From a virus: a stretch of 48,321 nucleotides of DNA. Every line of letters starts with the position of its first letter. Positions within the stretch are counted from its first letter, which is position 1. Positions 9,277 to 39,131 of the stretch are shown here, in pieces. The DNA lies in IMG/VR virus record IMGVR_UViG_3300002460_000006, positions 1 through 48,321 of that record; one strand, given 5' to 3'. The notes beneath the pieces were generated by a model. That model was not told the DNA's origin. It worked only from the letters and a program-made list of their open reading frames with translations, and made no database searches. Both the position numbers and the translations under genes were made by a program.

Positions 9277-10816
9277 AGTCCATTCCTTGGTCTGGCATTT
9301 TCAGTGCGCGATCTCCAAGACTCCTTGTCTCAGACCCCATCTCATTCTCCGGGCGACGCTCTAGTAACTTCCTGGCAAACCCCAACACGAACCCGTCACT
9401 CACGTCCGGTGACTGACCAACCCGAGCTTTAATATCCCTCTTTGGTTCGGCAAGCTTCTTTAAGCTGGTCTTATGTCTAGTCCCTTTGGTCCAACATAGT
9501 TGCTTTAAAATGTCAGGAAGCCACTCTTCAATTCGACTCCCTAGAGCTCCTCCGTCTTTGAGCCACTTCTCGGCCTCATTATACATTTGAGCTCTCATGT
9601 TCTCGTATTCGGAGTCCTTGCGCTCTGGGTGGTCATTGGGACTTGAGGCAAAGCTCACCAGCTCCCAATGATACTTCTCATCGGCATTGGCTAGAGTCTT
9701 AAGTGTGGTCCCCTCTCCTTGGTCGATGAGTACCATGTCAGCCCCAAGTTTGCGCTCCCACTCGATCAACTTATGATAGGTGTACCGGTGATCCTGACCC
9801 TGGGTCTTATCTAATTTATAACGCTCTAAAAGCTCCGCATAAGGTCCTTGCATATACCAAATGACAGTCTCATCCCCACCTGTCCAGGCAGGGTCACACA
9901 TGAGCATCACAGGTAAGGTGGACACCTGAGACTTATCGAAGTCTTTACCTCTATCGATAGCGGCACTCACAGCCTCCATACTGATAATAGAGTCCTTCGC
10001 CGACTTCCTCGGTAAGCCCCGCACCCGCACCCTGAACTCGTCATGGTCCTCGGAACCGTACTCCCTAAGCCAAGCTGCGATCTGCTTAGGGTCAACATGC
10101 TTCATGGTCCTGGTGTCGATCCTAAGACTATGCCACTCAGGTGAGCCCATGAGTTGCTCAAACTTACTCTCAGGGTCATCGGAGTTACCGAAAGCCATCC
10201 ATATTTTAATGGTGTCTACGTCAGTCATAGCTCCAGAGACGTAATTCCAAATAACCGCAGGGATACCCGGAGCCTCCTCGAAAATATATAAAACAGCTCG
10301 CCCTAGGTTGTGCAGTCCCGATATAGACGCAGGCGAACTGGCATCCCAAGTCACCGCATCCAGTCGCCAAGTCTCGGACCTTTTGGGGTCCTTGGCTTTA
10401 ATACTCTCACCGAACTTCTCAAAGAAGTGCTCACTGAACCTGGCATGTCGGTACCATTTATCGTACTCAGGCCAAATAACAGCTGTCATTTGAGGTTTAG
10501 TATTGGCCGTGATACGCCCTCTAACCTGTTGGGTGTACATGAGCATTAAAAACGTCATAGCCCCAAAGGAAGTCTTAGCCGCCCCATTACCGCTACTGAT
10601 GATAAGTCGGTAAGTCTCATAGCGAGTGAGAGGGTTACTTAAATGTTTACTTAATTTATCCCACTCCGCGAGCTGCCAATCATAAGGCTCGACGTTCTCC
10701 AACTCATGGTCCTTCTCACCAAAAGGAAAGATGATATAGGCAAGCTTAACGAAGTCGTAACGATTATCATTAACCAGCGTCTTAAACAGCTCCACGTCCT
10801 CAGCTGAAGGGATCAC
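9239..10816 (-). CDS. terL: Terminase large subunit.
   Basis: Walker A-like SSGNGAAKTS, Walker B-like LYIFEEA, and nuclease-domain CDPAWTGGDETV. 525 aa, adjacent to the small subunit and portal. Confidence 0.9.
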   Translation of the reverse strand: MIPSAEDVELFKTLVNDNRYDFVKLAYIIFPFGEKDHELENVEPYDWQLAEWDKLSKHLSNPLTRYETYRLIISSGNGAAKTSFGAMTFLMLMYTQQVRGRITANTKPQMTAVIWPEYDKWYRHARFSEHFFEKFGESIKAKDPKRSETWRLDAVTWDASSPASISGLHNLGRAVLYIFEEAPGIPAVIWNYVSGAMTDVDTIKIWMAFGNSDDPESKFEQLMGSPEWHSLRIDTRTMKHVDPKQIAAWLREYGSEDHDEFRVRVRGLPRKSAKDSIISMEAVSAAIDRGKDFDKSQVSTLPVMLMCDPAWTGGDETVIWYMQGPYAELLERYKLDKTQGQDHRYTYHKLIEWERKLGADMVLIDQGEGTTLKTLANADEKYHWELVSFASSPNDHPERKDSEYENMRAQMYNEAEKWLKDGGALGSRIEEWLPDILKQLCWTKGTRHKTSLKKLAEPKRDIKARVGQSPDVSDGFVLGFARKLLERRPENEMGSETRSLGDRALKMPDQGMDYEQTYYEEGLYD

Positions 10817-11157
10817 TTTAACCCCTGTAACATAATGTTTGTGAGAAGGTAGGCCTGAGCCTCGTCGTTGCTAAAGTCAGCCCTTACGCCCGCTTTATCT
10901 AAAATGAAATTGCAGGCATGAAGGCACTCATGACCGTAGATGTGCATTTGAGTTTTATCTCTAGTCCAAACGTAAAGGTTACCCTTTAGAGCCACCGTGA
11001 ACCCGTCAGGAGCCTCATCTTTATCCACCTCATATTTGGTCTGCTTCAGGATGAAGTCTTTAAACTCCTCCCAGTCCCAACCAAGGAAGTAGTAGACATT
11101 CACTCTGTACACTTCACAGTAATACCAATGAGGGAGGCGCACTTTTCGTTTAGCCAC
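10813..11157 (-). CDS. Small HExxH-motif protein (putative minimal zinc metallopeptidase).
   Basis: 114 aa. Contains YGHECLHACNF (HExxH). The GTG start overlaps the terS stop. Confidence 0.45.
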   Translation of the reverse strand: MAKRKVRLPHWYYCEVYRVNVYYFLGWDWEEFKDFILKQTKYEVDKDEAPDGFTVALKGNLYVWTRDKTQMHIYGHECLHACNFILDKAGVRADFSNDEAQAYLLTNIMLQGLK

Positions 11158-11908
11158 CCTTCACCCCCGGTGGTGCCGGCATCTGCGGTCTGACTCCAAC
11201 CTCGATCACGTCTCTGACCTCGGAGGCCTTACTCTCAGCCCTGTCTTTAGAAGCCAGTAGGGTAGAGGCCATGGTGCGCCCCATATCATGCTCGACTCGC
11301 TTGGTCTCTTTGAAAATTTCCTTCTCTCTACCGAGCAGCTCTGCGGCTCGCATCTTATCCCAAAACTCAACCTCTATGACTTTACCCGTAACTACAGGCA
11401 TACCGTTCGGGTCGGTACCGTACTCATTTTTAGCTTTAAATTTCTTAATGGCTCTTCGGACCTCAGGTGAGAGTTTTTTAAGACTCTCCACAAACGAACC
11501 GTCCTCGTTCTCCAAATCCCCCGGATCTACGAAGGCAATCTCTTTAACCTTCTCGACGATCTCTTCAGCGTCATAGCCGTATTTTAAAACCGCTCGCTCC
11601 GTGATCTCTTTAATCGCCTCAAAGATGTCAGGCTTCGCTCTCATCCTCACGCCAACATGGGGAGGAAGGCCTATGGCCTTAGCGGACTGCCTGGCATCAC
11701 GATTGAAAATATACTCGTTGATAAACCGCAGGACATAAGGATTGTCGTGATGCTCGGGCTTTAAACACTTGCGCAGGATAAGAGAAATCTCATCTGTGCT
11801 GATTAACATAGAAAGGTCTGACTTAGGTGGTAGAGGAAATCCCATAACCAAATGTTGGTCTATTGAATCATTGTCGGTCAACACCAATATTCTACTAAAG
11901 TATGCCAA
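11150..11908 (-). CDS. terS: Terminase small subunit.
   Basis: First gene of the late operon, upstream of terL. RFINEYIFNRDARQSAKAIGL resembles the Terminase_2 HTH region. The start (TTG 11908) is uncertain. Confidence 0.6.
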   Translation of the reverse strand: MAYFSRILVLTDNDSIDQHLVMGFPLPPKSDLSMLISTDEISLILRKCLKPEHHDNPYVLRFINEYIFNRDARQSAKAIGLPPHVGVRMRAKPDIFEAIKEITERAVLKYGYDAEEIVEKVKEIAFVDPGDLENEDGSFVESLKKLSPEVRRAIKKFKAKNEYGTDPNGMPVVTGKVIEVEFWDKMRAAELLGREKEIFKETKRVEHDMGRTMASTLLASKDRAESKASEVRDVIEVGVRPQMPAPPGVKGG

Positions 11909-12182
11909 TGACTACATTGTGCTTAACCTTTCTACATAGGGGAGGAGGGGATCGGGAGAGGGCTACCTCAATTACAACATTGTTGCACAGCGTTATATAG
12001 CGGAAAAATTAAAAAATTGTTGGGAACCCCTTATACAATATTTTAGCCCATCTCAAATTTCTGACCCACCCCCCTCGCATTTAAAACCCTTTTAAAAAAC
12101 CTATCATAAACTTAGAACTATTTACCACATTGTAAACTACTTGGACCTATACGGTGGTGTATAGCTTGAGACAATACTCTCC

Positions 12183-12417
12183 ACATTGTGGCATTACATT
12201 GTGGTAGTGCTACATTGTGGCATTACATTGTGGTAGTGCTACACTGTTGTAATATGTGGTTAACAGTGCCACACTGTTGTAAATACCAAAGGAATGATTG
12301 CCACACTGTTGTAAAATGTGGCTAGTAGTGCTACACTGTTGTAAAATGTGGTTAACAGTGCTACACTGTTGTAAAATGTGGTAAATTGAAGCGATTTTTG
12401 CTACATTGTTGTAAAAA
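12183..12417 (+). repeat. Phased array of 8 direct units (period 29-32 bp, last spacing 40) with core ACAYTGTKG(TAA).
   Basis: Unit starts are 12183, 12212, 12241, 12271, 12303, 12333, 12363 and 12403. The first two units are exact 29-bp copies. Three units share ACACTGTTGTAAAATGTGG. Confidence 0.9.
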
Positions 12418-12496
12418 TCTTGCCAAAAACTCCCCAAATTGACGAAAAACACAACAATGTAGTAAAATATTTTTAAAATAACGCATCGCTCATCCC

Positions 12497-12525
12497 TTGA
12501 TTTCCCCTCAAATCCAATATATAAT
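12497..12525 (+). promoter_or_regulatory. Sigma70-type promoter candidate pointing toward the early genes.
   Basis: TTGATT (12497..12502), a 17-nt spacer, then perfect TATAAT (12520..12525). Confidence 0.5.
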
Positions 12526-12603
12526 ATATATGACTGCTAGGCAGCATCCGGAGGAGTTTACGACTCCTTCGGTCCTGCCAAGCGGGTGTCTATATATATT
12601 ATA
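12518..12603. other. Long imperfect inverted repeat / extended hairpin with AT-only outer arms.
   Basis: Outer arms tatataatatatatgac / gtctatatatattata. Inner pairs GGCAG(12540-44)/CTGCC(12575-79) and CCGGAGGAG(12548-56)/CTCCTTCGG(12564-72). Loop is tttacga. Confidence 0.8.
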
Positions 12604-12735
12604 CGGCGCGTTAAATCTCTTCCCACATTGTTGTAATTTTGCCTAATTTAAGAACATTGTTGCATTGCTTCCCACATTGTTGTATATTGACAGTGTAGAG
12701 CAATTCCGCTCTCGCAAAAACCAAAGGATACATTT

Positions 12736-12969
12736 ATGAAAATGCATAAGAACTTTAAACTAGGTTTGGTTGTTGTCATGGCAAGTATTGCTATCAAAGC
12801 ATTCGCCGCTGATACATATGTTCAGGCCAACGATTGCGCCGGTAAAGAAATGACTGGTAAAGAAGTTGTCGAGACTTTGATCAAAAACCCAAAGGCTAAA
12901 ATCATCAAGTTTAGCTTGGTCGAACTATCTGAAAAGACTGGTAAAATCAAAAACAAGTCGAACCGATAA
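12736..12969 (+). CDS. Small secreted protein (signal peptide).
   Basis: MKMHKNFKLGLVVVMASIAIKAFA|AD. First early gene. Confidence 0.65.
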   Translation: MKMHKNFKLGLVVVMASIAIKAFAADTYVQANDCAGKEMTGKEVVETLIKNPKAKIIKFSLVELSEKTGKIKNKSNR

Positions 12970-13020
12970 AACGGACTGTTAACAAAAGCATGGACGCTTT
13001 TATATTTGGAGTTTAACCGT

Positions 13021-13344
13021 ATGAAATTATTAATACTAGCTCTTACCATCATTATCGCTTGTCAAAGTAATGCCTCTGAAAAAGGTTATGATAACAATTC
13101 TCTTCACGAATGGGCTGAACGCGTGGTCACAAAGCGTTTCCCTAAACTAAGTAAGTCACAAACACCCTATACCGCTTGCATTGAGCATTCCGCATTCGTT
13201 AAGACCGATGGGCGAGTATACGACGAAACGAAGCTTACAGGCTCGTGGGAAGGTTCAAAACGCCAAGAGGTAAGTCTTGCAATCACTTACGGGGCAGACG
13301 TGGTGAATGCGTGTGCAATACTCATGCATGGCATGGAATGGTGA
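13021..13344 (+). CDS. Putative lipoprotein.
   Basis: ATG 13021 is preceded by GGAG. MKLLILALTIIIAC carries the lipobox IIAC. The track's TTG start at 13006 is less likely. Confidence 0.6.
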   Translation: MKLLILALTIIIACQSNASEKGYDNNSLHEWAERVVTKRFPKLSKSQTPYTACIEHSAFVKTDGRVYDETKLTGSWEGSKRQEVSLAITYGADVVNACAILMHGMEW

Positions 13345-13345
13345 A

Positions 13346-13441
13346 ATGTATTGTATTACCAAGTTGCTATTATTGGTTAGTATAGGGTTCCTCGCAGGGG
13401 CCTTTTTGTTTTTTGGTATCTGCAATTTAATAGGAGTGTAA
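13346..13441 (+). CDS. Possible 31-aa single-TM peptide.
   Basis: Hand-translated as MYCITKLLLLVSIGFLAGAFLFFGICNLIGV. It fills an otherwise empty gap. Confidence 0.3.
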   Translation: MYCITKLLLLVSIGFLAGAFLFFGICNLIGV

Positions 13442-13443
13442 AT

Positions 13444-13548
13444 ATGGATCGTTTGACTGAACTATCGGAAAAATATGAGAAGGACCCAAAGTCGTTGACT
13501 CGTGAGGAACTCTTAGAGTTGATAAACTTGGTACTTAAACAGTTATGA
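13444..13548 (+). CDS. Possible 34-aa protein.
   Basis: AGGAG RBS 7 nt upstream. The stop overlaps the next start (ATGA). Confidence 0.45.
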   Translation: MDRLTELSEKYEKDPKSLTREELLELINLVLKQL

Positions 13549-13880
13549 AAACAAAACGCCTCTTTATCGAAAGTAGAAACTCTTTTGAATTATTACAACG
13601 GGCTTTCACTTTGTCTCGAATGAGTCACAATGGTATTAAGTCTGAACTATCGTTAAAACTTAAGGCTGTTCGACAATATTTGTCAAACTATCGCGGCGGC
13701 GCGTTTGATTACTTGTCGAACTACCCGTGTGGATATCAAGACTCTCACGGTGATAAGGTAGATCGGTTATTTTTTGAGTACGAATCATTGAAACTCGCTT
13801 ATAAACTCTCCAAAGGTGAAGCGACTGCGGTAATGCATCACTTTCAAGTAATGGTAGGTGATCATGATCACCAGATTTAA
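13545..13880 (+). CDS. Hypothetical early protein.
   Basis: 111-aa ORF, translationally coupled. Confidence 0.6.
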   Translation: MKTKRLFIESRNSFELLQRAFTLSRMSHNGIKSELSLKLKAVRQYLSNYRGGAFDYLSNYPCGYQDSHGDKVDRLFFEYESLKLAYKLSKGEATAVMHHFQVMVGDHDHQI

Positions 13881-14049
13881 ATCCATAACAGAGGTATCGG
13901 GCCCGGAGTGGGGCCTTGGGTGGCGAATTTAGACCGTGAAGATAACGAAATGACAATTTGGTTTTTTAAACTCTGGCCTTGCGAAATCCATACCTTAAAA
14001 GTACACCCGTTAAGTTACGAACTATCCATTGCCGAGTATATCACTACCA

Positions 14050-14157
14050 ATGTTTGAGTGGATTCTCATAAGCCTTGGAGCTTTAATATTCATATTGATA
14101 CATTACTTGATACTTACCCGTCGGCAATCCAATCAAATCAAAAACGACCAAGACTAA
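14050..14157 (+). CDS. Possible 35-aa single-TM peptide.
   Basis: Hand-translated as MFEWILISLGALIFILIHYLILTRRQSNQIKNDQD. Confidence 0.3.
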   Translation: MFEWILISLGALIFILIHYLILTRRQSNQIKNDQD

Positions 14158-14276
14158 AATATCACATCGCGTTTACATTATTTAGTATTGACAACATTGT
14201 CACATTTTACCACATTGTAGTCTCAACGGTCTAAGGTTACTCTTACAGTAGCCTTGGCATTTCTGAGAGGGTTTCA

Positions 14277-14477
14277 ATGAGTAAAAAGACGGAGTTACAT
14301 GCTGCTTTCGCTAAGTGGTTTAATCGTACACCTATCCCTATGTTGGATATTCCACGCGTCATGGATAAGTCTCGAGACTTAATGATATTAGGTCATCATG
14401 ATGCTGATCGGGCCATGCAATTGGTTCGTGAGACTTATAAAGAGGTCAAGCCGGGGGTGTTTCAATGTCAACCGTAA
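14277..14477 (+). CDS. Hypothetical early protein.
   Basis: 66-aa ORF with GAGAGGG RBS, downstream of a motif-bearing intergenic region. Confidence 0.6.
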   Translation: MSKKTELHAAFAKWFNRTPIPMLDIPRVMDKSRDLMILGHHDADRAMQLVRETYKEVKPGVFQCQP

Positions 14478-15019
14478 AGAATAAATTTAAGACATTGGCG
14501 CGTTTTGCTAGCAAAGACCCCACAAAACCTCATTTGGGTTTCATTGTTTGGAATGAGACGTTAAAAGGACTTGTTGCCTGTGATGGTTACAGGTTAATCG
14601 TGGATAAAACAGGCCCGATGAGTGAGCCTTTTAGTGCCTCTGTGTACTTAAAAACAGGTGAGAGGTTAGTGGACAAAAACGTATTGGAACGTTATCCGAA
14701 CGCCTTACGTATAATCCCGGATATAGAGACGTATCCTTTCGATAATTGTTTTGAGTTCACGGTCCCCAATTGGTTCGGGAAATTAGACAGTGACCAAAAG
14801 GACAAACCTATAAGTTTTACGCTCAATGGTGCAGCTATGGTGACAATCAAAGACCCTTGTAAAATTGTACCTATCGCATTTACCCTAAATGCGAGGTTAC
14901 TAGCTCCACTTGCGGGTTTAACGCTATTTTTAAGGTGGAAAGACAGTATGGGTCCTGTCCACTTTACTCTCACCGATGAGCCTGATATTTACGGCGTATT
15001 GATGCCGATGAGAGGGTGA
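14465..15019 (+). CDS. Truncated DnaN / beta sliding-clamp-like protein (184 aa).
   Basis: KPHLGFIVWNETLKGLVACDGYRLIV parallels E. coli DnaN RYYLNGMLFE..LRTVATDGHRLAV. ERYPNALRIIPD parallels GRFPDYRRVLP. C-terminal YGVLMPMRG parallels ..YVVMPMRL. Confidence 0.6.
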   Translation: MSTVKNKFKTLARFASKDPTKPHLGFIVWNETLKGLVACDGYRLIVDKTGPMSEPFSASVYLKTGERLVDKNVLERYPNALRIIPDIETYPFDNCFEFTVPNWFGKLDSDQKDKPISFTLNGAAMVTIKDPCKIVPIAFTLNARLLAPLAGLTLFLRWKDSMGPVHFTLTDEPDIYGVLMPMRG

Positions 15020-15022
15020 GCC

Positions 15023-15157
15023 ATGCTAATAGAGATATGCTTTGGGATTTTAGGGTGTTTTATCACCTTACTTTTAGTGGTCGCATGGATGTCTTTGACG
15101 TTGGATAAAAGGGATAGGCGGCTTAGTAAGACGTGGCGGCCAAGAGGTGAGTCATGA
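15023..15157 (+). CDS. Possible 44-aa single-TM protein.
   Basis: GAGGGTGAG RBS. MLIEICFGILGCFITLLLVVAWM.. The stop overlaps the next ATG (ATGA). Confidence 0.5.
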   Translation: MLIEICFGILGCFITLLLVVAWMSLTLDKRDRRLSKTWRPRGES

Positions 15158-15396
15158 GAGGCGGTTATCGGATAGTCCGTTATCATTGGCATTTAACCAG
15201 CTTTAAGACTGAGTATTTGGCTCACGATGGACTTTGGTACTCTGAGTGTGAAGATGATTACCCTAGTCCACTAGAGGCGAGAGTGTGGTTTCAAAGTATT
15301 TTCCCAGATAAGACTTTAAGGCGCGTAAAGTATTGGATTCAAGGGCCCAACGGCGGTAAACATGCCTTGGTTAGAAAAAAGGTAGGTTATGGATAA
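15154..15396 (+). CDS. Hypothetical protein.
   Basis: 80-aa ORF with AGAGGTGAG RBS. Confidence 0.6.
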   Translation: MRGGYRIVRYHWHLTSFKTEYLAHDGLWYSECEDDYPSPLEARVWFQSIFPDKTLRRVKYWIQGPNGGKHALVRKKVGYG

Positions 15397-15892
15397 ATTA
15401 GACATGGATATTGAAATGCTGGAGATCTCCCCTAAAGGTGTGGACTATACGGCGAAAGTAAAGTTACCCAAAGATACGGCCTATAAGGTCTATCATGTCG
15501 CTAAGACTAAGGGTTACTCCTACAACTCTATCGTTCAGATGGCCGTCGACTTTGCGCTTAGGAATATGAACGAGTGTTTTGACTTTGACTACAGTTGGTC
15601 CAGCGAAGACCACGAAGCGGGTAAGTATGCCAAGGAAGCAAGTTTGCTTTTGAAGTACTTGAACAAGTTTGATGACTTGGGGTGTACCGCTTTTCAGTTG
15701 GTTATGTATCGAGAGGAGTTTTTCGTTAAAAGTCCAACGGCGGTTCTAGGGGCCTTGCAAGAATTGCATATTAACGGACTGGTCGAGACGGTCGCGAATA
15801 AGCGCAGTAACTTCAAGACTCCTTCAGGTGAGTTTTGGCGTGTCAAAGGTATTGGTAAAAGAACTAAAGACGTTATGAAAGGGGTGTTGTAA
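15389..15892 (+). CDS. Hypothetical protein, possible winged-helix C-terminal half.
   Basis: 167-aa ORF. ..LGALQELHINGLVETVANKRS.. looks wHTH-like. Unverified. Confidence 0.55.
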   Translation: MDKLDMDIEMLEISPKGVDYTAKVKLPKDTAYKVYHVAKTKGYSYNSIVQMAVDFALRNMNECFDFDYSWSSEDHEAGKYAKEASLLLKYLNKFDDLGCTAFQLVMYREEFFVKSPTAVLGALQELHINGLVETVANKRSNFKTPSGEFWRVKGIGKRTKDVMKGVL

Positions 15893-16111
15893 GTGGATAA
15901 CAGGAAAGTGGATAAAACGGAGTTTTGGGGAAAAGATGTCGTGGCCTTTCGTAAGGCTCATGGGATGCAACAATCGGACTTGGCAGAGCTTTTAGGTGTC
16001 ACCAAAGGGGCAGTAGAACACTGGGAAGCGGACCGAAGACATGTCCCTGAACCTGTGGTTAGGATTTTAATCCTGTTCGAAAGTGAACCTAAACTCATGA
16101 GTAAGTTTTAG
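15893..16111 (+). CDS. XRE-family helix-turn-helix protein.
   Basis: FRKAHGMQQSDLAELLGVTKGAVEHWEADRRHVPEP fits the Cro/CI HTH pattern. Confidence 0.7.
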   Translation: MDNRKVDKTEFWGKDVVAFRKAHGMQQSDLAELLGVTKGAVEHWEADRRHVPEPVVRILILFESEPKLMSKF

Positions 16112-16174
16112 TCATGTCCAGACCTACGAAAATACGAACGTTACAGATATTCCCGAGACCACATTGGGGGAGAT

Positions 16175-16450
16175 ATGAAAGAATTTGATCTTAAAAAAGC
16201 TCGTGAAGCGGCTACTCATAGACACTCTCCGGTGGACTTCGCAATGGGTGCAGAGTGGCAATATAACCAAGAGCGCCTTTCGGAAAAATCAATGACTGAA
16301 GAAGATGTAGCCAACACCAACCTTATCGCAGCTGCACCTGAAATGCTTGAGGCGCTAATAAACGCAGCTTCCGTACTGGCATGCTTTCCAGGGCAAGAAC
16401 CTGAGGTGCAAAAATTACGTGATTTAATCAAAAAAGCGAGAGGCGAGTAG
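16175..16450 (+). CDS. Hypothetical protein.
   Basis: 91-aa ORF with GGGGGAG RBS. Last gene of the early block. Confidence 0.6.
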   Translation: MKEFDLKKAREAATHRHSPVDFAMGAEWQYNQERLSEKSMTEEDVANTNLIAAAPEMLEALINAASVLACFPGQEPEVQKLRDLIKKARGE

Positions 16451-16567: not shown

Positions 16568-18526
16568 TCAAAGTTCCTTCCCCTCAAGATCAGTAATAAC
16601 ATAGGCCTTTTCACGGACGGAAAGGTCAGGATTATCTACCAATTTTATCCTCTCGCCCATGTGGCCACCAAACACCAAACTAGACAGTGATCGTTTAATT
16701 CTCGCTTCACTGATGGGCTCACTTGAAGTCATAAAATTATTAGCAATTACATTTTTGTCAGGATATTTATCGTTTCTACGACACTCTTTGATGAAGTTGA
16801 AAATTCTCTCAGCATCACTAAGTTTGGAGTTCATTTCGTTCTCTTTTACTGGACTTAATGTTTTTCGAGTGAACAGGTAACCGGACCGGACTATGATAAA
16901 TTGCTTATTCAGTAGCGACGAACCGTCGGAGAACTTATTCACGTTGCAAACCATAGCCGTATCATCGCCTTCCAAGTCTTCCCCTGTCAGGTCGCGGTAT
17001 TCAGTAGCGTCAATAGACCTTAACACTCGCGACACCCTCGAGTTGGACGGCAGTCCCGTACCACCTCGACCAGCATACTGAGACATATCCTTGTTGGTAG
17101 ATGAGGACTTACCAATGTGGTTGACCATCTCCACACAAGCTCCTGATTTTTCTACTAGTTCTGACATGAACTTAGTGACAGCCTTACCCATATCGTTCAA
17201 AGATTGCTCACTTCCCCAAAAACTGGCTATTGGGTCAAAGACGATCATTTGAGGTTTGAAGTCATCAACGGCCTGCATGAGCTTGGTGAGAGCGTTGTTA
17301 TTAGGTGTAAGAAAGCCGTCCTTAGACTTGGATATGAGGCACAGGTCCGAGTCTTTTTTGATGAGAATGGACTTTAAAATAGTGTTGATTTTCTCGTCGT
17401 TTCCGATAGCTTCCTCGAAAAGTCCCATTTGTCTACAGATTGCGCCGATCATCGCGGCAAGCTTCTTGTCGGTGTCTTCGCCTGTAATGAACAGAGTTTT
17501 GCCACCCGGTGCTTTGCAGTCAAACCCAAGAAAGCGATCTCCTAGGGCCAAACAGATAGCTTCATAGAGCTTTAACGTGGTCTTCCCAGTACCACCGTCG
17601 GCGGACGTGATTTGGATGTCAGTGGTGGACCAGTCTTTAAAGAGTTGAGGTTTGCGTAGCTTACTCATGTTCATGAGATCGTATTTGGTGAAAAAGGCAG
17701 GTGTCCAGCGATCAGGTGTCTTAGGTACCTCAGGGATGTCAAAAGCCAATACAGGGGGACTTGCCGCAAACGGACAGGTCATAGGGTTTTTCACACCACC
17801 GTCAAGACCTGACTTTATGGTGGCTTTGGCCTCATAGTCTGGCTTTCCGCGATCTTTTGCTGCTTTGAAGAGTTCTTGCTCTGCAAACTCTCTAGACAAT
17901 ACGCTAGAGCCAAGCAACTGTCCGACTTTGAAGCATTCCGTATTGAGTACATTGTTAGACTCCCCGGAGGGTGCGTGTCGTACTCTTTCCAAGCATTCGT
18001 TAAAGATAGCTTCAGCGATTTCAGGAGAGACTGTAACTGTTGAGACACCCGTTTCTGGACCTTGAGGTTTGCTGATGAGATCAAGCAACCATTGCGGTGT
18101 CTCAAGGATAGGTTTATTAGGGTCAGTCCACCCATAGAAGGCAATCCAACCGCCTTCAGCGCGAATGTCGAGACCGGGTAGAAAACCCACCTTTTGACCA
18201 TAATGTTTACCGTCTTTAGGGTATTTGAAAACAAAGTGAGCCCCTCCGTTAAGAGTTTTTTGCTGAAGTGTATCCGGTATCTGAAGTCCATGCTTGGCAA
18301 TCGTACCCCAACCGTCACTTTTAATGTCGACATCAAGGACTAATATATCGTTCCCTTTACCTGTAGGTATACCATAAAAATTGATAGTGGAACCGAATTG
18401 CTTTTGCCACGCGGTTAACTGTGAAGGGTCGTTGGATGCGTTTTGCTCATACTTCCAACCGTTGATGAGAGGTACTTTTTGAGCATCGGGGGTTAGCCAT
18501 GCAGGGAAGATTTTGAAGTTAGTCAT
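16568..18526 (-). CDS. Bifunctional Prim-Pol primase / P-loop replicative helicase (P4 alpha-like architecture).
   Basis: The N-terminus ..KVPLINGWKYEQN...FYGIPTGKGNDILVLDVDIK has a Prim-Pol-like DxD. The central Walker A is SADGGTGKTT, followed by MIVFDP (Walker B-like). Confidence 0.8.
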   Translation of the reverse strand: MTNFKIFPAWLTPDAQKVPLINGWKYEQNASNDPSQLTAWQKQFGSTINFYGIPTGKGNDILVLDVDIKSDGWGTIAKHGLQIPDTLQQKTLNGGAHFVFKYPKDGKHYGQKVGFLPGLDIRAEGGWIAFYGWTDPNKPILETPQWLLDLISKPQGPETGVSTVTVSPEIAEAIFNECLERVRHAPSGESNNVLNTECFKVGQLLGSSVLSREFAEQELFKAAKDRGKPDYEAKATIKSGLDGGVKNPMTCPFAASPPVLAFDIPEVPKTPDRWTPAFFTKYDLMNMSKLRKPQLFKDWSTTDIQITSADGGTGKTTLKLYEAICLALGDRFLGFDCKAPGGKTLFITGEDTDKKLAAMIGAICRQMGLFEEAIGNDEKINTILKSILIKKDSDLCLISKSKDGFLTPNNNALTKLMQAVDDFKPQMIVFDPIASFWGSEQSLNDMGKAVTKFMSELVEKSGACVEMVNHIGKSSSTNKDMSQYAGRGGTGLPSNSRVSRVLRSIDATEYRDLTGEDLEGDDTAMVCNVNKFSDGSSLLNKQFIIVRSGYLFTRKTLSPVKENEMNSKLSDAERIFNFIKECRRNDKYPDKNVIANNFMTSSEPISEARIKRSLSSLVFGGHMGERIKLVDNPDLSVREKAYVITDLEGKEL

Positions 18527-18675: not shown

Positions 18676-19179
18676 TCACACCAAGCCATGGTTAATGAGA
18701 GCCTGACCGTACATCAAGTGAGCTTCCAACTCTGTTGCGTAACTCCCTAGGTGTATCTTTTTACCGTTTACTGTGATTTCGCTTCGCCAAGTCCCGTGGT
18801 AATTACTCCACCATGCTCCCACTAATTTACCGTTCCTATGTACTTTTCTGTTTTGAGAGTTTTTTCGATTGCTTACAGATCTTAGATTGTCGAACTTATT
18901 GTTTAACCCATTGCCGTCAATGTGATCTATTACTTCAGCCCACTCGTCTGTCTCCAAGAACCAAATGATTTTATGGAGATAGTAATAAACCCTATTGATT
19001 CCGACACCGACATATTTAACAGGGTCCGTTCTTCTCTCATCTATCCATATAGATCCTGCCACTCTACCTCTTAGGAACTCAGCATTGGCTGGTCGCCAAT
19101 GATTTTTCCAAATCAACACCCCTTGCTCACGATTGTAATCAAATAGGTTCAACAGATACTCTCTTGTTAAGTTTTCCAC
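18676..19179 (-). CDS. Free-standing HNH homing-type endonuclease with a C-terminal AP2-like DNA-binding domain.
   Basis: HIDGNGLNNKFDNLRSVSNRKNSQN is an HNH motif. WRSEITVNGKKIHLGSYATELEAHLMY is an AP2-like motif. My preferred start is GTG 19179, preceded by AAGGGAG. The track's start at 19302 would overlap the upstream gene by 136 nt. Confidence 0.8.
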   Translation of the reverse strand: MENLTREYLLNLFDYNREQGVLIWKNHWRPANAEFLRGRVAGSIWIDERRTDPVKYVGVGINRVYYYLHKIIWFLETDEWAEVIDHIDGNGLNNKFDNLRSVSNRKNSQNRKVHRNGKLVGAWWSNYHGTWRSEITVNGKKIHLGSYATELEAHLMYGQALINHGLV

Positions 19180-26373: not shown

Positions 26374-26614
26374 TCCAACAGAAGAAAAGGTAATTAAGGC
26401 GATAACAAAACGGCATGTTAGTGTCCTTGAGGTGGCCAATCGAGTTTACAAAAACTCTGAGAAACCTTTGAACCCTCGAAACACTGTGGCCGGTATAATT
26501 CAGCGAGTGAATCGCAAGTGTCTTTATTACAAACTAGATTGGCACATTGCCGGTGAAGGTTTGGGTCGACACGGTAAGACGGTTTGGAAAGAATCATTAA
26601 AGGAGCAAAAATGA
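26366..26614 (+). CDS. Hypothetical small protein.
   Basis: 82-aa ORF with a GTG start after AGGAGA. Confidence 0.55.
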   Translation: MFSPTEEKVIKAITKRHVSVLEVANRVYKNSEKPLNPRNTVAGIIQRVNRKCLYYKLDWHIAGEGLGRHGKTVWKESLKEQK

Positions 26615-32386: not shown

Positions 32387-33133
32387 ATGTTAAAAATACC
32401 GTTCGCAGTTCAACACCCTAGAAGAATGCGCACCAAGGGTCCGTACAGTGGCAGAAATGGACCACGCGGCCTACTGGTTCACGCTACCGCTGGTAGGTTC
32501 AACAAGGGTGACCAAAGCGCATTTAAGACGATCGACGGTGGAATTGACGGCGGCCTCGCTTATCTCTGTATCTCTCAGCCCGGAACCCTGGTTCAAGCCC
32601 ATGACGTTAACGAGTGGGGTTGGCACTCAGGAAAGTCCGCATGGGACGTTCCTCTTAAAAGGCTTAATTGGAAAATTGTAGGCCGAGTCGATGACGACTT
32701 GATCGGTTGCGAAAACAACTGCGCAGGGCTCTTAACGAAGGTTGGTCGAAAGTATTACCCCTATTGGGCATTTAAAGACAAAAATCCAAGTACCAAAATC
32801 ATCATAGATCCCGACGAAGATATCCCTGAAGATTTTGTGAGATTCGTTACCAAAGATCTTCACGCCTGTCCAACTGGCTATTATCACAAGTTCACACCTC
32901 AGCAAGAGGACACGCTTACCAGAGCCATCATGTGGCTGTATGTGAATTGTCCTGACTTCAAACTCGAGTACGTACTAGGTCATCACGAAGCTGCCGGAGT
33001 GCCGGGGATCGGTTACTGGAGAAAGAATGATCCGGGCGGAGCCTTTAGTTGGGCGATGCCAGCATTCAGAGAATACCTAATCAAAAACAAACACGCCCTT
33101 ATTGAAAAATACGGCATCACCAAGGTAACATAA
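32387..33133 (+). CDS. N-acetylmuramoyl-L-alanine amidase (Amidase_2 / T7-lysozyme-type) endolysin candidate.
   Basis: GLLVHATAG.., ..WGWHSG.., and LGHHEAAGVPGIGYWRKNDPGG, matching the zinc-ligand pattern H...H..(K)xDPG. Confidence 0.7.
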   Translation: MLKIPFAVQHPRRMRTKGPYSGRNGPRGLLVHATAGRFNKGDQSAFKTIDGGIDGGLAYLCISQPGTLVQAHDVNEWGWHSGKSAWDVPLKRLNWKIVGRVDDDLIGCENNCAGLLTKVGRKYYPYWAFKDKNPSTKIIIDPDEDIPEDFVRFVTKDLHACPTGYYHKFTPQQEDTLTRAIMWLYVNCPDFKLEYVLGHHEAAGVPGIGYWRKNDPGGAFSWAMPAFREYLIKNKHALIEKYGITKVT

Positions 33134-33426
33134 TGTCACTTATCAGATTAAACAATAAGGGTGTACACGCACTTCAGAACAAGGGTCTTAATAAAAGTGA
33201 GATTCATTTGATTTCTATTTTCTTGAACTCTAGTGATCAGGTCGCGACGGCTAACGCTTTATTTATCAGCCATGGTGCGGTCAAATGTCGAATGAGTTGT
33301 ATCTACAATAAACTAGACTTTAAGGGAGTGACTCTACTTTGGCAATGGTTCATTCGAGAGAGATTGATTGAACTGGTCGAAAGCGAAGAGTGTATTAACC
33401 TTCCAAGTTCTCGCGGGTGTCCATAA
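33133..33426 (+). CDS. LuxR/GerE-type HTH protein.
   Basis: LNKSEIHLISIFLNSSDQVATANALFISHGAVKCRMSCIYNKL fits the GerE pattern. The start overlaps the amidase stop (TAATG). Confidence 0.6.
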   Translation: MSLIRLNNKGVHALQNKGLNKSEIHLISIFLNSSDQVATANALFISHGAVKCRMSCIYNKLDFKGVTLLWQWFIRERLIELVESEECINLPSSRGCP

Positions 33427-37832: not shown

Positions 37833-39131
37833 TTAAATTAACCCGTTCGATGACTCAAGAACCCAGTTAGTGCCGTCAAATACGAACACAACGATGGAGT
37901 TTTCACCGAAAATTAAAGTCGCCCCGCCTGTGCTCAACCCGTTCCCGTCAGCCATGGTGACTGTATTCACACCACTACGACCGATCAAAGTGAGCCTTTG
38001 ACCAACGTTTGTTCCTGCCGCAATTCTAGCCGCAGCAGTAACCGTAACCGCTCCACCTGAACCTTGAATGAACCAAAGATTGTTATAACTAGTACCCGTA
38101 AACGAAATGCCCGTAGCGCCTACAACGGCACTAGGTGCGGCTCTCGTGCCGGTTACTGAAGGAGCGGCAATACTGGCTGCACTGGCCGCCGCTGCCGCTG
38201 CACTTGCCGCCGCGTTGGTTTCTGAAGTAGCGGCATTGGTCTCAGACGTGGCCGCATTAGCTTCGGAGCTAGCCGCAGTTATTACACTGGCCGCCGCTGC
38301 ATCTTCGCTGGCCTCTGCCGCTGTTGCGGCGGTGCTTGCCGTTGTGGCACTGGTAGCCGCGTTAGTTGCAGAAGTGGCGGCATTGGTCTCTGAGGTAGCC
38401 GCGTTGGTTGCGGAAGTGGCGGCCGAAGTGGCACTGGTAGCCGCGTTGGTTGCAGAAGTGGCGGCATCAGTCGCAGAAGTCGCTGCCGAAGTGGCACTGG
38501 TAGCCGCGTTGGTTGCTGAAGTGGCCGCTTGCGACTCACTGGTGGCTGCTGCCGCTGCACTTGCCGCCGCTGCCGCTGCGTCCGCCGCTAGATCGACCGT
38601 CGAGGGGCCTATCTTAAATGAAGCGTTATCGTCACCAACACAGATGACTTTATCTACATTGTTTTGAGTGGCTACAGTCGTGGAGAATATAGGAATAAGT
38701 GGGTCAAAAGGTTCTGAGTCCACCAAAGAGTCCCCGATTTGCATGGACCTTGAGACTCGATAAGTAAGGCGCTGAACGGCCAAACCTAATGCGTCCAGTG
38801 CAGACTCTAAACGAGAGAGTGTGAGTGAACCTTTATTCTTAAACTCAGAGGCTTGGACTGGTTCATCGTTGGCTTGAAGGATCGTGAGGAAATGACCAGA
38901 AGGGAGAGCGTCAACTAAGACAACAGTTCCTCCGCCTAGCACCGCATCAAAGGTCACGGAGTCGATATAAGTCGTGTCACTCCCTCGAACTCTGAACGTC
39001 TCAACATATGAAGCATTCGTCACCATGATGATGAGATGTTCCAACGAGGTTATTTTAAACGGAAAAGTATAGGTGTCTAAAAGACCCGTTCCGATAGCTT
39101 CAGTTCTTGGTTGAAACAACTCTATTGCCAT
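37833..39131 (-). CDS. Tail fibre with a T7 gp17-like N-terminal anchoring region and an Ala/Thr/Ser heptad shaft.
   Basis: N-terminal ..LDTYTFPFKITSLEHLIIMVTN resembles recalled gp17 ..RDFNIPFEYLARKFVVVTL. About 17 heptads of the NAATSAT type. Confidence 0.7.
   Translation of the reverse strand: MAIELFQPRTEAIGTGLLDTYTFPFKITSLEHLIIMVTNASYVETFRVRGSDTTYIDSVTFDAVLGGGTVVLVDALPSGHFLTILQANDEPVQASEFKNKGSLTLSRLESALDALGLAVQRLTYRVSRSMQIGDSLVDSEPFDPLIPIFSTTVATQNNVDKVICVGDDNASFKIGPSTVDLAADAAAAAASAAAAATSESQAATSATNAATSATSAATSATDAATSATNAATSATSAATSATNAATSETNAATSATNAATSATTASTAATAAEASEDAAAASVITAASSEANAATSETNAATSETNAAASAAAAAASAASIAAPSVTGTRAAPSAVVGATGISFTGTSYNNLWFIQGSGGAVTVTAAARIAAGTNVGQRLTLIGRSGVNTVTMADGNGLSTGGATLIFGENSIVVFVFDGTNWVLESSNGLI
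38166..38591 (-). repeat. In-frame 21-bp (heptad) tandem repeat region inside the fibre gene.
   Basis: Repeated GAAGTGGCGGCATTGGTCTCT-type units on the plus strand encode AATSATN/AATSETN. Confidence 0.85.

Follow-up and report, generated by a model that had tools for sequence, protein, structure and literature searches.

In phage φ29 the sites of p4 and p6 lie between promoters A2c/A2b and A3, in phage P2 the Cox boxes lie between Pe and Pc, and the ori/crr of P4 α is an iteron origin of a primase-helicase, comparable to the island origins considered next. Origins of the Staphylococcus aureus pathogenicity islands (SaPIs) carry iterons on both sides of an AT-rich centre, which are read by the winged-helix domain of a self-loading helicase (PMC9371898). 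The protein ω (ParB) of pSM19035, a small ribbon-helix-helix (RHH) protein, binds with one dimer per 7-bp word, and its arrays of 7-10 words, direct or inverted, overlap several promoters and are bound with strong cooperativity (PMC9499535). The operator of MqsA is a short dyad, AACCT-N3-AGGTT (PMC4894380). Here we analysed a 48,321-nt viral DNA (IMG/VR record IMGVR_UViG_3300002460_000006, positions 1 to 48,321; this whole stretch is called the window) and focused on an array of ~30-bp repeats that occupies part of the divergent control region. On one side of this region is TerS, the small terminase gene, which opens a leftward late operon; on the other begins a rightward operon of small early genes. 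The array proves to be real and is conserved in a family of phages, and its sequence makes us lean towards reading it as a dense set of operators to which a sequence-specific DNA-binding protein of the phage itself would bind.

The motif ACAYTGTKG, from which the earlier note on this DNA had started, is indeed enriched: the window holds 16 matches against 1.44 expected, a count reached in 0 of 100 shuffles, and 15 of the 16 fall within 11977-12682, in the 890-bp gap between the two operons, with one coding match at 26481. Tandem Repeats Finder (TRF) delimited a stretch at 12183-12247 (period 29, 2.2 copies, 97% match) and another at 12235-12382 (period 30, 4.9 copies). All eight unit starts that had been listed are present, but the array comprises ten direct copies, not eight, with second copies at 12196 and 12225, one within each of the first two 29-bp units. 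It is laid out as two 29-bp units with two copies each (13/16-bp spacing) followed by units of 30, 32, 30, 30 and 40 bp, and site centres in the window are 13, 16, 30, 32 and 40 bp apart. The unit consensus is GTGCTACACTGTTGTAAAATGTGGTnAA, and ACACTGTTGTAAAATGTGG, the sequence ascribed to the later units, is found exactly at 12303, 12333 and 12363. The units have spacer bases in common as well, a sign of recent tandem duplication.

An alignment of the copies gives TGCY-ACAYTGT-TGTAA, that is, a 7-bp dyad core, ACA-N-TGT, with an asymmetric extension; this dyad inside the motif had been overlooked. With its flanks the core reads CNACA-N-TGTNG, the flanks specific to this phage being CYACA-Y-TGTKG, extended to TGTTGTAA. 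The core ACANTGT occurs 30 times in the window, 18 times inside the 890-bp gap, and the remaining 12 occurrences equal the chance expectation. In a whole-genome scan with a 17-bp matrix, an approach that the earlier note had suggested, all hits scoring at least 14 were non-coding and the four coding hits scored 9.8-11.3, non-coding DNA making up 8% of the genome, and so the motif is not present at similar density within genes. The notion that a period near three helical turns places all sites on one DNA face did not hold: at 10.5 bp/turn the resultant vector for the ten array sites is 0.26 and the 30-bp units drift by ~51 degrees per unit, a single face being obtained only at 10.0 bp/turn. At two unit junctions (12262-12278 and 12354-12370) we also observed a perfect 17-bp palindrome, AACAGTG-NNN-CACTGTT, of which 0 are expected by chance and whose half-site centres lie 10 bp apart; it may be suited to a classical helix-turn-helix (HTH) dimer or may be a by-product of the repeats.

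Outside the array, every further copy that had been reported was recovered (11914, 11972-11988, 12127, 12449-12465 in inverted orientation, 12620, 12649, 12669, 14190 and 14207; Table 1). The copy described as lying on the minus strand at 11971-11985 is a genuine site but a perfect palindrome, with matrix scores of 19.2 on the plus and 18.8 on the minus strand. The word ACAWTGTAGTC is common to the sites at 11909-11925 and 14207. The inverted copy at 12449-12465 overlaps the -10-like TAAAAT of a promoter-like site, the weak site at 12690 overlaps a TTGACA, and the first site of the 14186-14223 pair abuts another TTGACA.

To place the array in a wider context, related phages were sought in several ways. 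A blastn search with 11000-14500 against 50,697 phage records gave no match, no cultured phage being alike at the DNA level, and an exact two-unit pattern scan of viral contigs returned 27 single chance matches and no related array. The TerS protein, in turn, has 149 homologues in public metagenomes, many of them on 45-50-kb contigs; a scan of metagenomes with a TerS alignment returned only 9 short contigs, and a scan of genomes returned 3 loci, one of them on a contig of a Bdellovibrio metagenome-assembled genome (MAG). A Bdellovibrio sp. MAG label, carried by two family members (L097 and protein P0052), is the sole hint of a host. Altogether, loci of ~20 distinct related genomes were fetched via TerS, PrimPol and exact protein look-ups, and they provided the comparison with related phages that the earlier note had advised: the core is found at the same place in these ~20 relatives, with flanks that are specific to each phage. 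It reads TGAACAWTGTTCA in L070 (26 copies in the 3 kb upstream of TerS), L068 and L095; TATACAATGTATA in L087; TAACAWTGTTA in L053, L085, L097 and L102; ATAACAWTGTTAT in L103; AAACANTGTGT in L080, L100 and L101; TTACAWTGTAW in L104; and AACTCTGTTAC, one base off the core, in L037.

Dense arrays with periods of 20-30 bp recur at the same position, their copy number differing greatly between relatives, and some of them use a different word, as does that of L069 (GGAGATATAGA, with a period of 29). Enrichment of the sites in non-coding DNA is significant in five relatives whose genes were called independently (p 1e-4 to 2e-11). Within each genome the sites form several clusters, two to eight sites apiece, in the gaps that precede early genes (sites of this kind are seen in the window, at 14190 and 14207, and in L087, L085, L042, L070 and L103), and usually also one or two sites 60-330 bp upstream of TerS, an equivalent of the symmetric site at 11972 being present in this interval in most relatives. 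Neighbouring sites in the relatives are spaced 12-41 bp apart, with peaks at 12, 18-20, 30-32 and 41 bp, which is consistent with cooperative binding.

Compared with the described systems, the locus is like those of φ29 and P2 in pairing a small phage protein, here a putative binder, with several phased sites in a short divergent region that separates transcription units; the protein folds and site sequences are unrelated, however, and the sites there number 4-6. It is like the ω system in its 7-bp core, its arrays of up to ~12 copies, its several promoter-proximal clusters and the presence of an RHH-like gene, but ω heptads are contiguous and non-palindromic, whereas the sites here are 12-41 bp apart and have a dyad core. 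Among the window proteins scanned, a part of all open reading frames (ORFs), no ParA or ParM partner was seen, the sole CbiA match lying within the helicase; a ParA-like ATPase is found in the relative L103.

The binder is likely, to judge from gene content and order, to be one of two proteins encoded by a pair of genes at the far end of the early operon: the RHH-like protein of 15389-15892 or the HTH protein of 15893-16111. These genes are adjacent in 25 of the 25 covering loci collected earlier, and again in L100, L101, L103 and L104. The RHH-like protein, which the earlier note had overlooked, belongs to a fast-evolving family of 156-194 aa encoded immediately upstream of the HTH gene. A profile of the syntenic proteins matched the CopG family (E=0.0018), pRN1 ORF56 (0.0027) and CopG (0.067), 4 of the 6 matches being annotated as RHH or CopG; Pfam RHH_3 was detected in 3 of 11 members, and RHH_3, RHH_1 and RHH_5 in 5 of 11 at weak E-values. 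One RHH β-ribbon, inserted into a single major groove, reads a dyad of 7 bp. With its RHH assignment moderately supported, 15389-15892 is a putative cognate RHH protein encoded by the element.

The HTH protein matched Pfam HTH_3 (E=7.9e-8) and MqsA_antitoxin (E=8.4e-7; 29.6 bits against a cut-off of 30, over profile positions 61-128 of 131), and a profile of its family matched HigA-2 (E=1.3e-6) and the MqsA C-terminal domain (2e-4 to 6e-4). Members of this family, of 62-84 aa, are encoded in all loci that include this stretch of the early operon except the truncated L097 contig; a homologue search with the window protein itself returned only that protein. The protein aligns over the whole C-terminal DNA-binding domain of MqsA, and the sites resemble the MqsA operator in being short dyads: CAACA-N-TGTTG, or xAAC-N3-GTTx, has ~5-bp half-sites around a 1-3-bp centre, as MqsA/HigA2 operators do, the likeness being one of geometry only. 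Positions 2 and 6 of its HTH helix align with MqsA Asn97 and Arg101, two residues reported to be important for DNA binding (PMC5422877). Unlike MqsA, the protein lacks the zinc-binding N-terminal domain, its 72 aa being the HTH domain only; its presumed sites number 20, not one or two, and differ in half-site sequence; and its gene lies in a phage early operon, next to the RHH-like gene and a P22_Y8K6-like gene. Since it consists of the HTH domain only and has these neighbours, we do not take it for part of a toxin-antitoxin module (an MqsR homologue was not searched for). The ORF at 33133-33426, previously called LuxR, has no Pfam match at E<=0.01.

Co-variation of protein and site across 10-13 related genomes does not separate the HTH from the RHH protein. 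In five genomes, among them L103, for which the rule was tested prospectively, Gln at position 2 of the HTH helix accompanies A-ACA sites; small residues at this position accompany T-ACA sites in four. Moreover, the helix xPAVDHW and the word AAACA-N-TGTGT are both common to three genomes whose RHH strands differ, a sharing that would slightly favour the HTH over the RHH protein.

We favour operators because phage-specific variants of the dyad, placed in several promoter-proximal clusters, travel together with the regulator pair, as is the signature of a regulon, and because the presence of several clusters before early genes fits a transcription-factor regulon better than a single origin or packaging site. 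One of the two readings offered in the earlier note, an operator or promoter array, therefore stands in its operator form, given the core clusters in ~20 relatives and the conserved regulator pair, but is weak in its promoter form. Among the window proteins scanned with Pfam no phage RNA polymerase or sigma factor was found, and so host polymerase acting with phage factors is the expected logic. In the mechanism that we propose, host RNA polymerase would transcribe the early operon and the regulator would accumulate, until it occupies the upstream array together with the sites close to the early promoters (12439-12700 and 14186-14223). Binding would be cooperative between sites one to four helical turns apart, and the filled sites would feed back on early transcription in a Cro-like manner; through the two sites upstream of the weak TerS promoter the regulator may also help to switch on the late genes. 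The identity of the binder, the sign of regulation and the purpose of the high copy number are what we infer.

Several points weigh against this interpretation. Ten to twelve tandem sites far exceed the need of a simple Cro-like switch, and the array, the AT-rich DNA and the long hairpin together also resemble an origin. The promoter predictions in the window are weak, none being placed with confidence, and no fixed site-to-TTGACA distance holds across genomes. The RHH assignment rests on E-values of 0.002-0.07, the RHH-like protein of the window is a sequence orphan with no detectable sequence homologue but itself among 5.8 billion proteins, and an AlphaFold2 model of this 167-aa protein, made without an alignment, was unusable (predicted local distance difference test, pLDDT, 35). 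The co-variation is unclean as well: the rule for Gln at position 2 is broken by L104, a rule based on RHH strand position is equally good, with one exception (L037), and both rules are confounded by shared ancestry. The more specific idea that the sites overlap core promoters was dropped, TTGACA-site distances being without fixed phase.

Arrayed phage-regulator sites in a divergent control region are already well known, and the finding is useful more than surprising. It defines a regulatory word, ACA-N-TGT with phage-specific flanks, for a widespread uncultured family of 45-50-kb podovirus-like phages, together with the control region of that family and two candidate regulators, and thereby offers direct help in annotating the early and late transcription units of these genomes from metagenomes. 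The natural series of flanks and recognition residues could also be used to study the evolution of specificity in MqsA-type HTH or RHH proteins.

The alternative that survives best, although we hold it to be unlikely, is that the array consists of iterons at which an initiator, either the C-terminal domain of the PrimPol-helicase or an early RHH/HTH protein recruiting it, would melt 12416-12603 for helicase loading. The layout resembles that of an origin, iterons having been one of the readings in the earlier note: ten direct copies (12183-12411) and one inverted copy are followed by AT-rich DNA with a hairpin (12416-12603) and by three more copies (12620-12685), and the order of sites, hairpin, AT-rich stretch and sites is repeated in L037 and L035. 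The P4-alpha-like architecture claimed for the enzyme holds loosely, since it combines PrimPol, AAA_25 and a short C-terminal domain, and this extra domain, of ~85 aa, recalls SaPI Rep/Pri-Rep, in which short repeats likewise flank an AT-rich centre and a primase-helicase fusion has an extra C-terminal domain (PMC9371898). The cumulative GC-skew minimum, at 12-13 kb, also fits but coincides with the gene-strand switch and is therefore not independent evidence.

The same proposal is weakened by the distribution of the sites, which, unlike iterons, are not confined to the origin and at most one control locus and occur also in other promoter gaps upstream of early genes, in the window as in relatives. 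Whereas SaPI iterons lie immediately downstream of rep and are opposed on the two sides, the array here is 4.2 kb from the PrimPol gene, and the site sets flanking the centre are not opposed, nearly all sites pointing in the same direction. The putative recognition helix of the PrimPol C-terminal domain (SEARIKR) is, moreover, nearly invariant among phages with different flanks. In L103, a ParA-like ATPase (AAA_31, E=8.8e-37) occupies the syntenic place of the PrimPol-helicase, a second replacement being a 414-aa protein with a weak λ-O-like domain (L103:90-2160), and tblastn for PrimPol was negative over the 20.7 kb seen of this 49.8-kb genome, yet five good sites and the regulator pair are retained. 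The replication or partition module is thus swapped within the family, perhaps a sign of a plasmid-like lifestyle, and the survival of the motif alongside a replaced PrimPol argues against PrimPol iterons. Were the element an origin after all, its initiator would more likely be a small early protein than PrimPol. DnaA boxes (TGTGGTTAA against TGTGGATAA) were considered and rejected, as relatives keep ACA-N-TGT without TGTGG.

We attach a low probability to a titration device, neither operator nor origin in the plain sense, in which about a dozen decoy sites would soak up the early regulator until, above a threshold, the early-to-late switch is thrown or the origin fires at the AT-flanked hairpin. 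As part of this proposal, the regulator sites would serve as origin-recognition element whatever the replication module, be it PrimPol-helicase or λ-O-like protein with ParA. It would explain both the variation of copy number in relatives and the motif surviving the module swap.

It is similarly improbable that the motif itself belongs to a promoter, in which case the array would consist of weak early promoters stacked over one another, or of promoters of a type that a modified host polymerase reads. Site orientation does match the nearest transcription unit, as had been claimed, both in the window and in L037; the 3' extension is often -10-like (TGTTGTAAAAT, TGTATAAT and TGTTACATAAAT); and in L070 and the second gap of the window CAWTGT is preceded, at 17-19 bp, by a -35 box that is perfect or nearly so. 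However, no sigma-70-like site with at least 9 of 12 matches (16-18-bp spacing) lies within the array at 12178-12414, the register between the motif and the -10-like bases varies, and units spaced by 13-30 bp leave too little room for polymerases to bind independently. The variable TTGACA distance across genomes counts here too, as does the failure to find a phage sigma factor or RNA polymerase, and many relatives (L070, L068 and L103) have fully symmetric sites in both orientations. The near match to an extended -10 that had been noticed also loses its force, since TGTTGTAAT has its single mismatch at the second base of the -10 hexamer, an A, and no other -10 position is conserved as well as this one. 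Promoters formed by hairpins, as in N4, were rejected because a virion RNA polymerase was not found and the palindromes of the array sites are imperfect.

A pac/cosB-like site, at which oligomers of the small terminase would bind repeats beside their own gene and start headful packaging, is very unlikely. The TerS start and the beginning of the array are 340 bp apart, TerS occurs in all loci that carry the motif, though only because it had served as search probe, and the closest cultured relatives of the large terminase, TerL, are those of ε15- and P22-type phages (30-34% identity), which are headful packagers. In L100 and L101, however, the main clusters lie in a divergent region 1-2.5 kb from TerS, with 2-3 genes between, and this separation argues against a pac site; in L036, whose TerS is 63% identical to that of the window, there is no divergent region upstream and ACANTGT is at chance level; and sites recur before internal early genes. 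What remains is a clustering of contig ends. Of the first related contigs cut on that side, 18/32 end <=1.2 kb upstream of TerS, far above chance, but a complete contig of 48,420 nt has ends that overlap, with an indel of 143 bp, and near-identical phages end at different distances, so that the clustering is better explained by assembly breaks at a repetitive, strain-variable region, and physical genome ends were rejected. Contigs ending near TerS are L035, L036, L043-L045, L050, L052, L054, L055, L057, L058 and L060-L062, and further ones are L065-L067, L069, L102, L105 and L106. A tRNA-like gene, judged by eye, lies just upstream of TerS in some relatives (L003:4270-4350; L048 ~9820-9900).

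Least probable of all is an element acting in RNA, for example as a protein sponge made of transcribed repeats or hairpins (CACUGUU..AACAGUG). In its favour, 7-bp stems are possible in three units, the word keeps one orientation throughout the array and a structured element lies downstream; against it, the stems are missing in half of the units, Rfam gave no match, and the feature conserved in relatives is a DNA dyad in both orientations.

Table 1. Coordinates of the sites, predicted elements and genes of the control region and early operon in the window.
Feature	Coordinates	Strand	Basis or remark
Small terminase TerS	11150-11845	-	First gene of leftward late operon; Pfam Terminase_2 E=3.5e-13; 231-aa gene call in ENA copies
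Non-coding gap, 890 bp	11846-12735		Between TerS and rightward operon of small early genes
Degenerate site ACAATGTAGTCA (minus strand)	11909-11925	-	~70 bp upstream of TerS start
Symmetric site TTACAACATTGTTGCAC (CAACA-T-TGTTG)	11972-11988	.	~130 bp upstream of TerS start codon
Isolated weaker site CCACATTGTAA	12122-12138	+	Site list
Direct array, ten site copies	12178-12414	+	TRF, pattern search, unit alignment, site list
Sigma-70-like TTGACG-18-TAAAAT	12439-12468	+	Predicted; 10/12 consensus matches
Sole inverted copy TTACTACATTGTTGTGT (minus strand)	12449-12465	-	Matrix score 20.7
Sigma-70-like TTGATT-17-TATAAT	12497-12525	+	Predicted; 10/12 consensus matches
Imperfect hairpin/cruciform, 84 nt	12520-12603	.	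GC-rich core, AT-only arms 12516-12531 and 12588-12602
Three good direct sites (12620, 12649, 12669) and weak 12690	12620-12696	+	40-115 bp upstream of first early gene
Early operon of small genes	12736-16450	+	Starts with 77-aa signal-peptide protein; ORF lists and L033 gene calls
Two sites TTGACAACATTGTCAC, CCACATTGTAG	14186-14223	+	Second non-coding gap, 55-90 bp upstream of gene 14277; score 14.2
Candidate binder 1, RHH-like, 167 aa	15389-15892	+	N-terminus RHH-like (..AKVKLPKDTAYKVYHVAKTKGYSYNSIVQMAVDFAL..); C-terminus winged-helix-like by eye
Candidate binder 2, MqsA/HigA2-type HTH, 72 aa	15893-16111	+	Pfam HTH_3, MqsA_antitoxin
PrimPol and AAA_25 helicase	16568-18526	-	Pfam; ~85-aa C-terminal domain, winged-helix look

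Between the array and the first early gene, the AT-only element described in the earlier note is present as AT-only DNA, but it forms the paired arms of the 84-nt hairpin. This structure has a predicted stability of -42.5 kcal/mol (z-score -5.5, with 0/200 shuffles as stable) and begins within the -10 of TTGATT-17-TATAAT; it is possibly a small RNA, a cruciform or an origin component. No Rfam match was found at E<=1 over 11700-12900, the hairpin included. GC-rich hairpins with AT-rich shoulders are also seen in L037, L035 and L092, and a survey of the relatives found many hairpins, none of them clearly homologous. The two predicted sigma-70-like sites lie between the array and the hairpin, the total of such sites in the window not exceeding the shuffle mean. 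A second operator-like palindrome was searched for in the control region and none was found. On the other side of the gap, the TerS start codon of many family members is preceded, at ~40-50 nt, by a TTGAC(A) box, which frequently takes the form CCACTTGACA (window 11846-11890; also L035, L037, L003, L048, L053, L059, L082 and L096); as there is no room for a leader or Shine-Dalgarno sequence, the TerS mRNA is suggested to be leaderless or to have a very short leader.

The window, with 45.7% G+C, has ends that are identical over 95 bases and so represents a closed circular assembly of ~48.2 kb; the same genome is found in two ENA metagenome assemblies (48,367 nt), in which the intergenic region is identical. 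By its gene content it is a podovirus-like phage, with genes annotated for a T7-type portal, an ε15-type capsid protein and a 2,053-aa virion protein that carries a transglycosylase trace. Between the PrimPol-helicase and VRR-NUC-like genes lies an HNH_3-type (AP2-like) endonuclease gene (18676-19179), which is likely a mobile insertion since it is present in some relatives and absent from others. Nested tandem repeats with periods of 21, 42 and 63 bp occupy 38209-38589, the region of highest G+C, inside the minus-strand ORF 37833-39131 (432 aa), whose product is probably a repetitive structural or tail-fibre-like protein.

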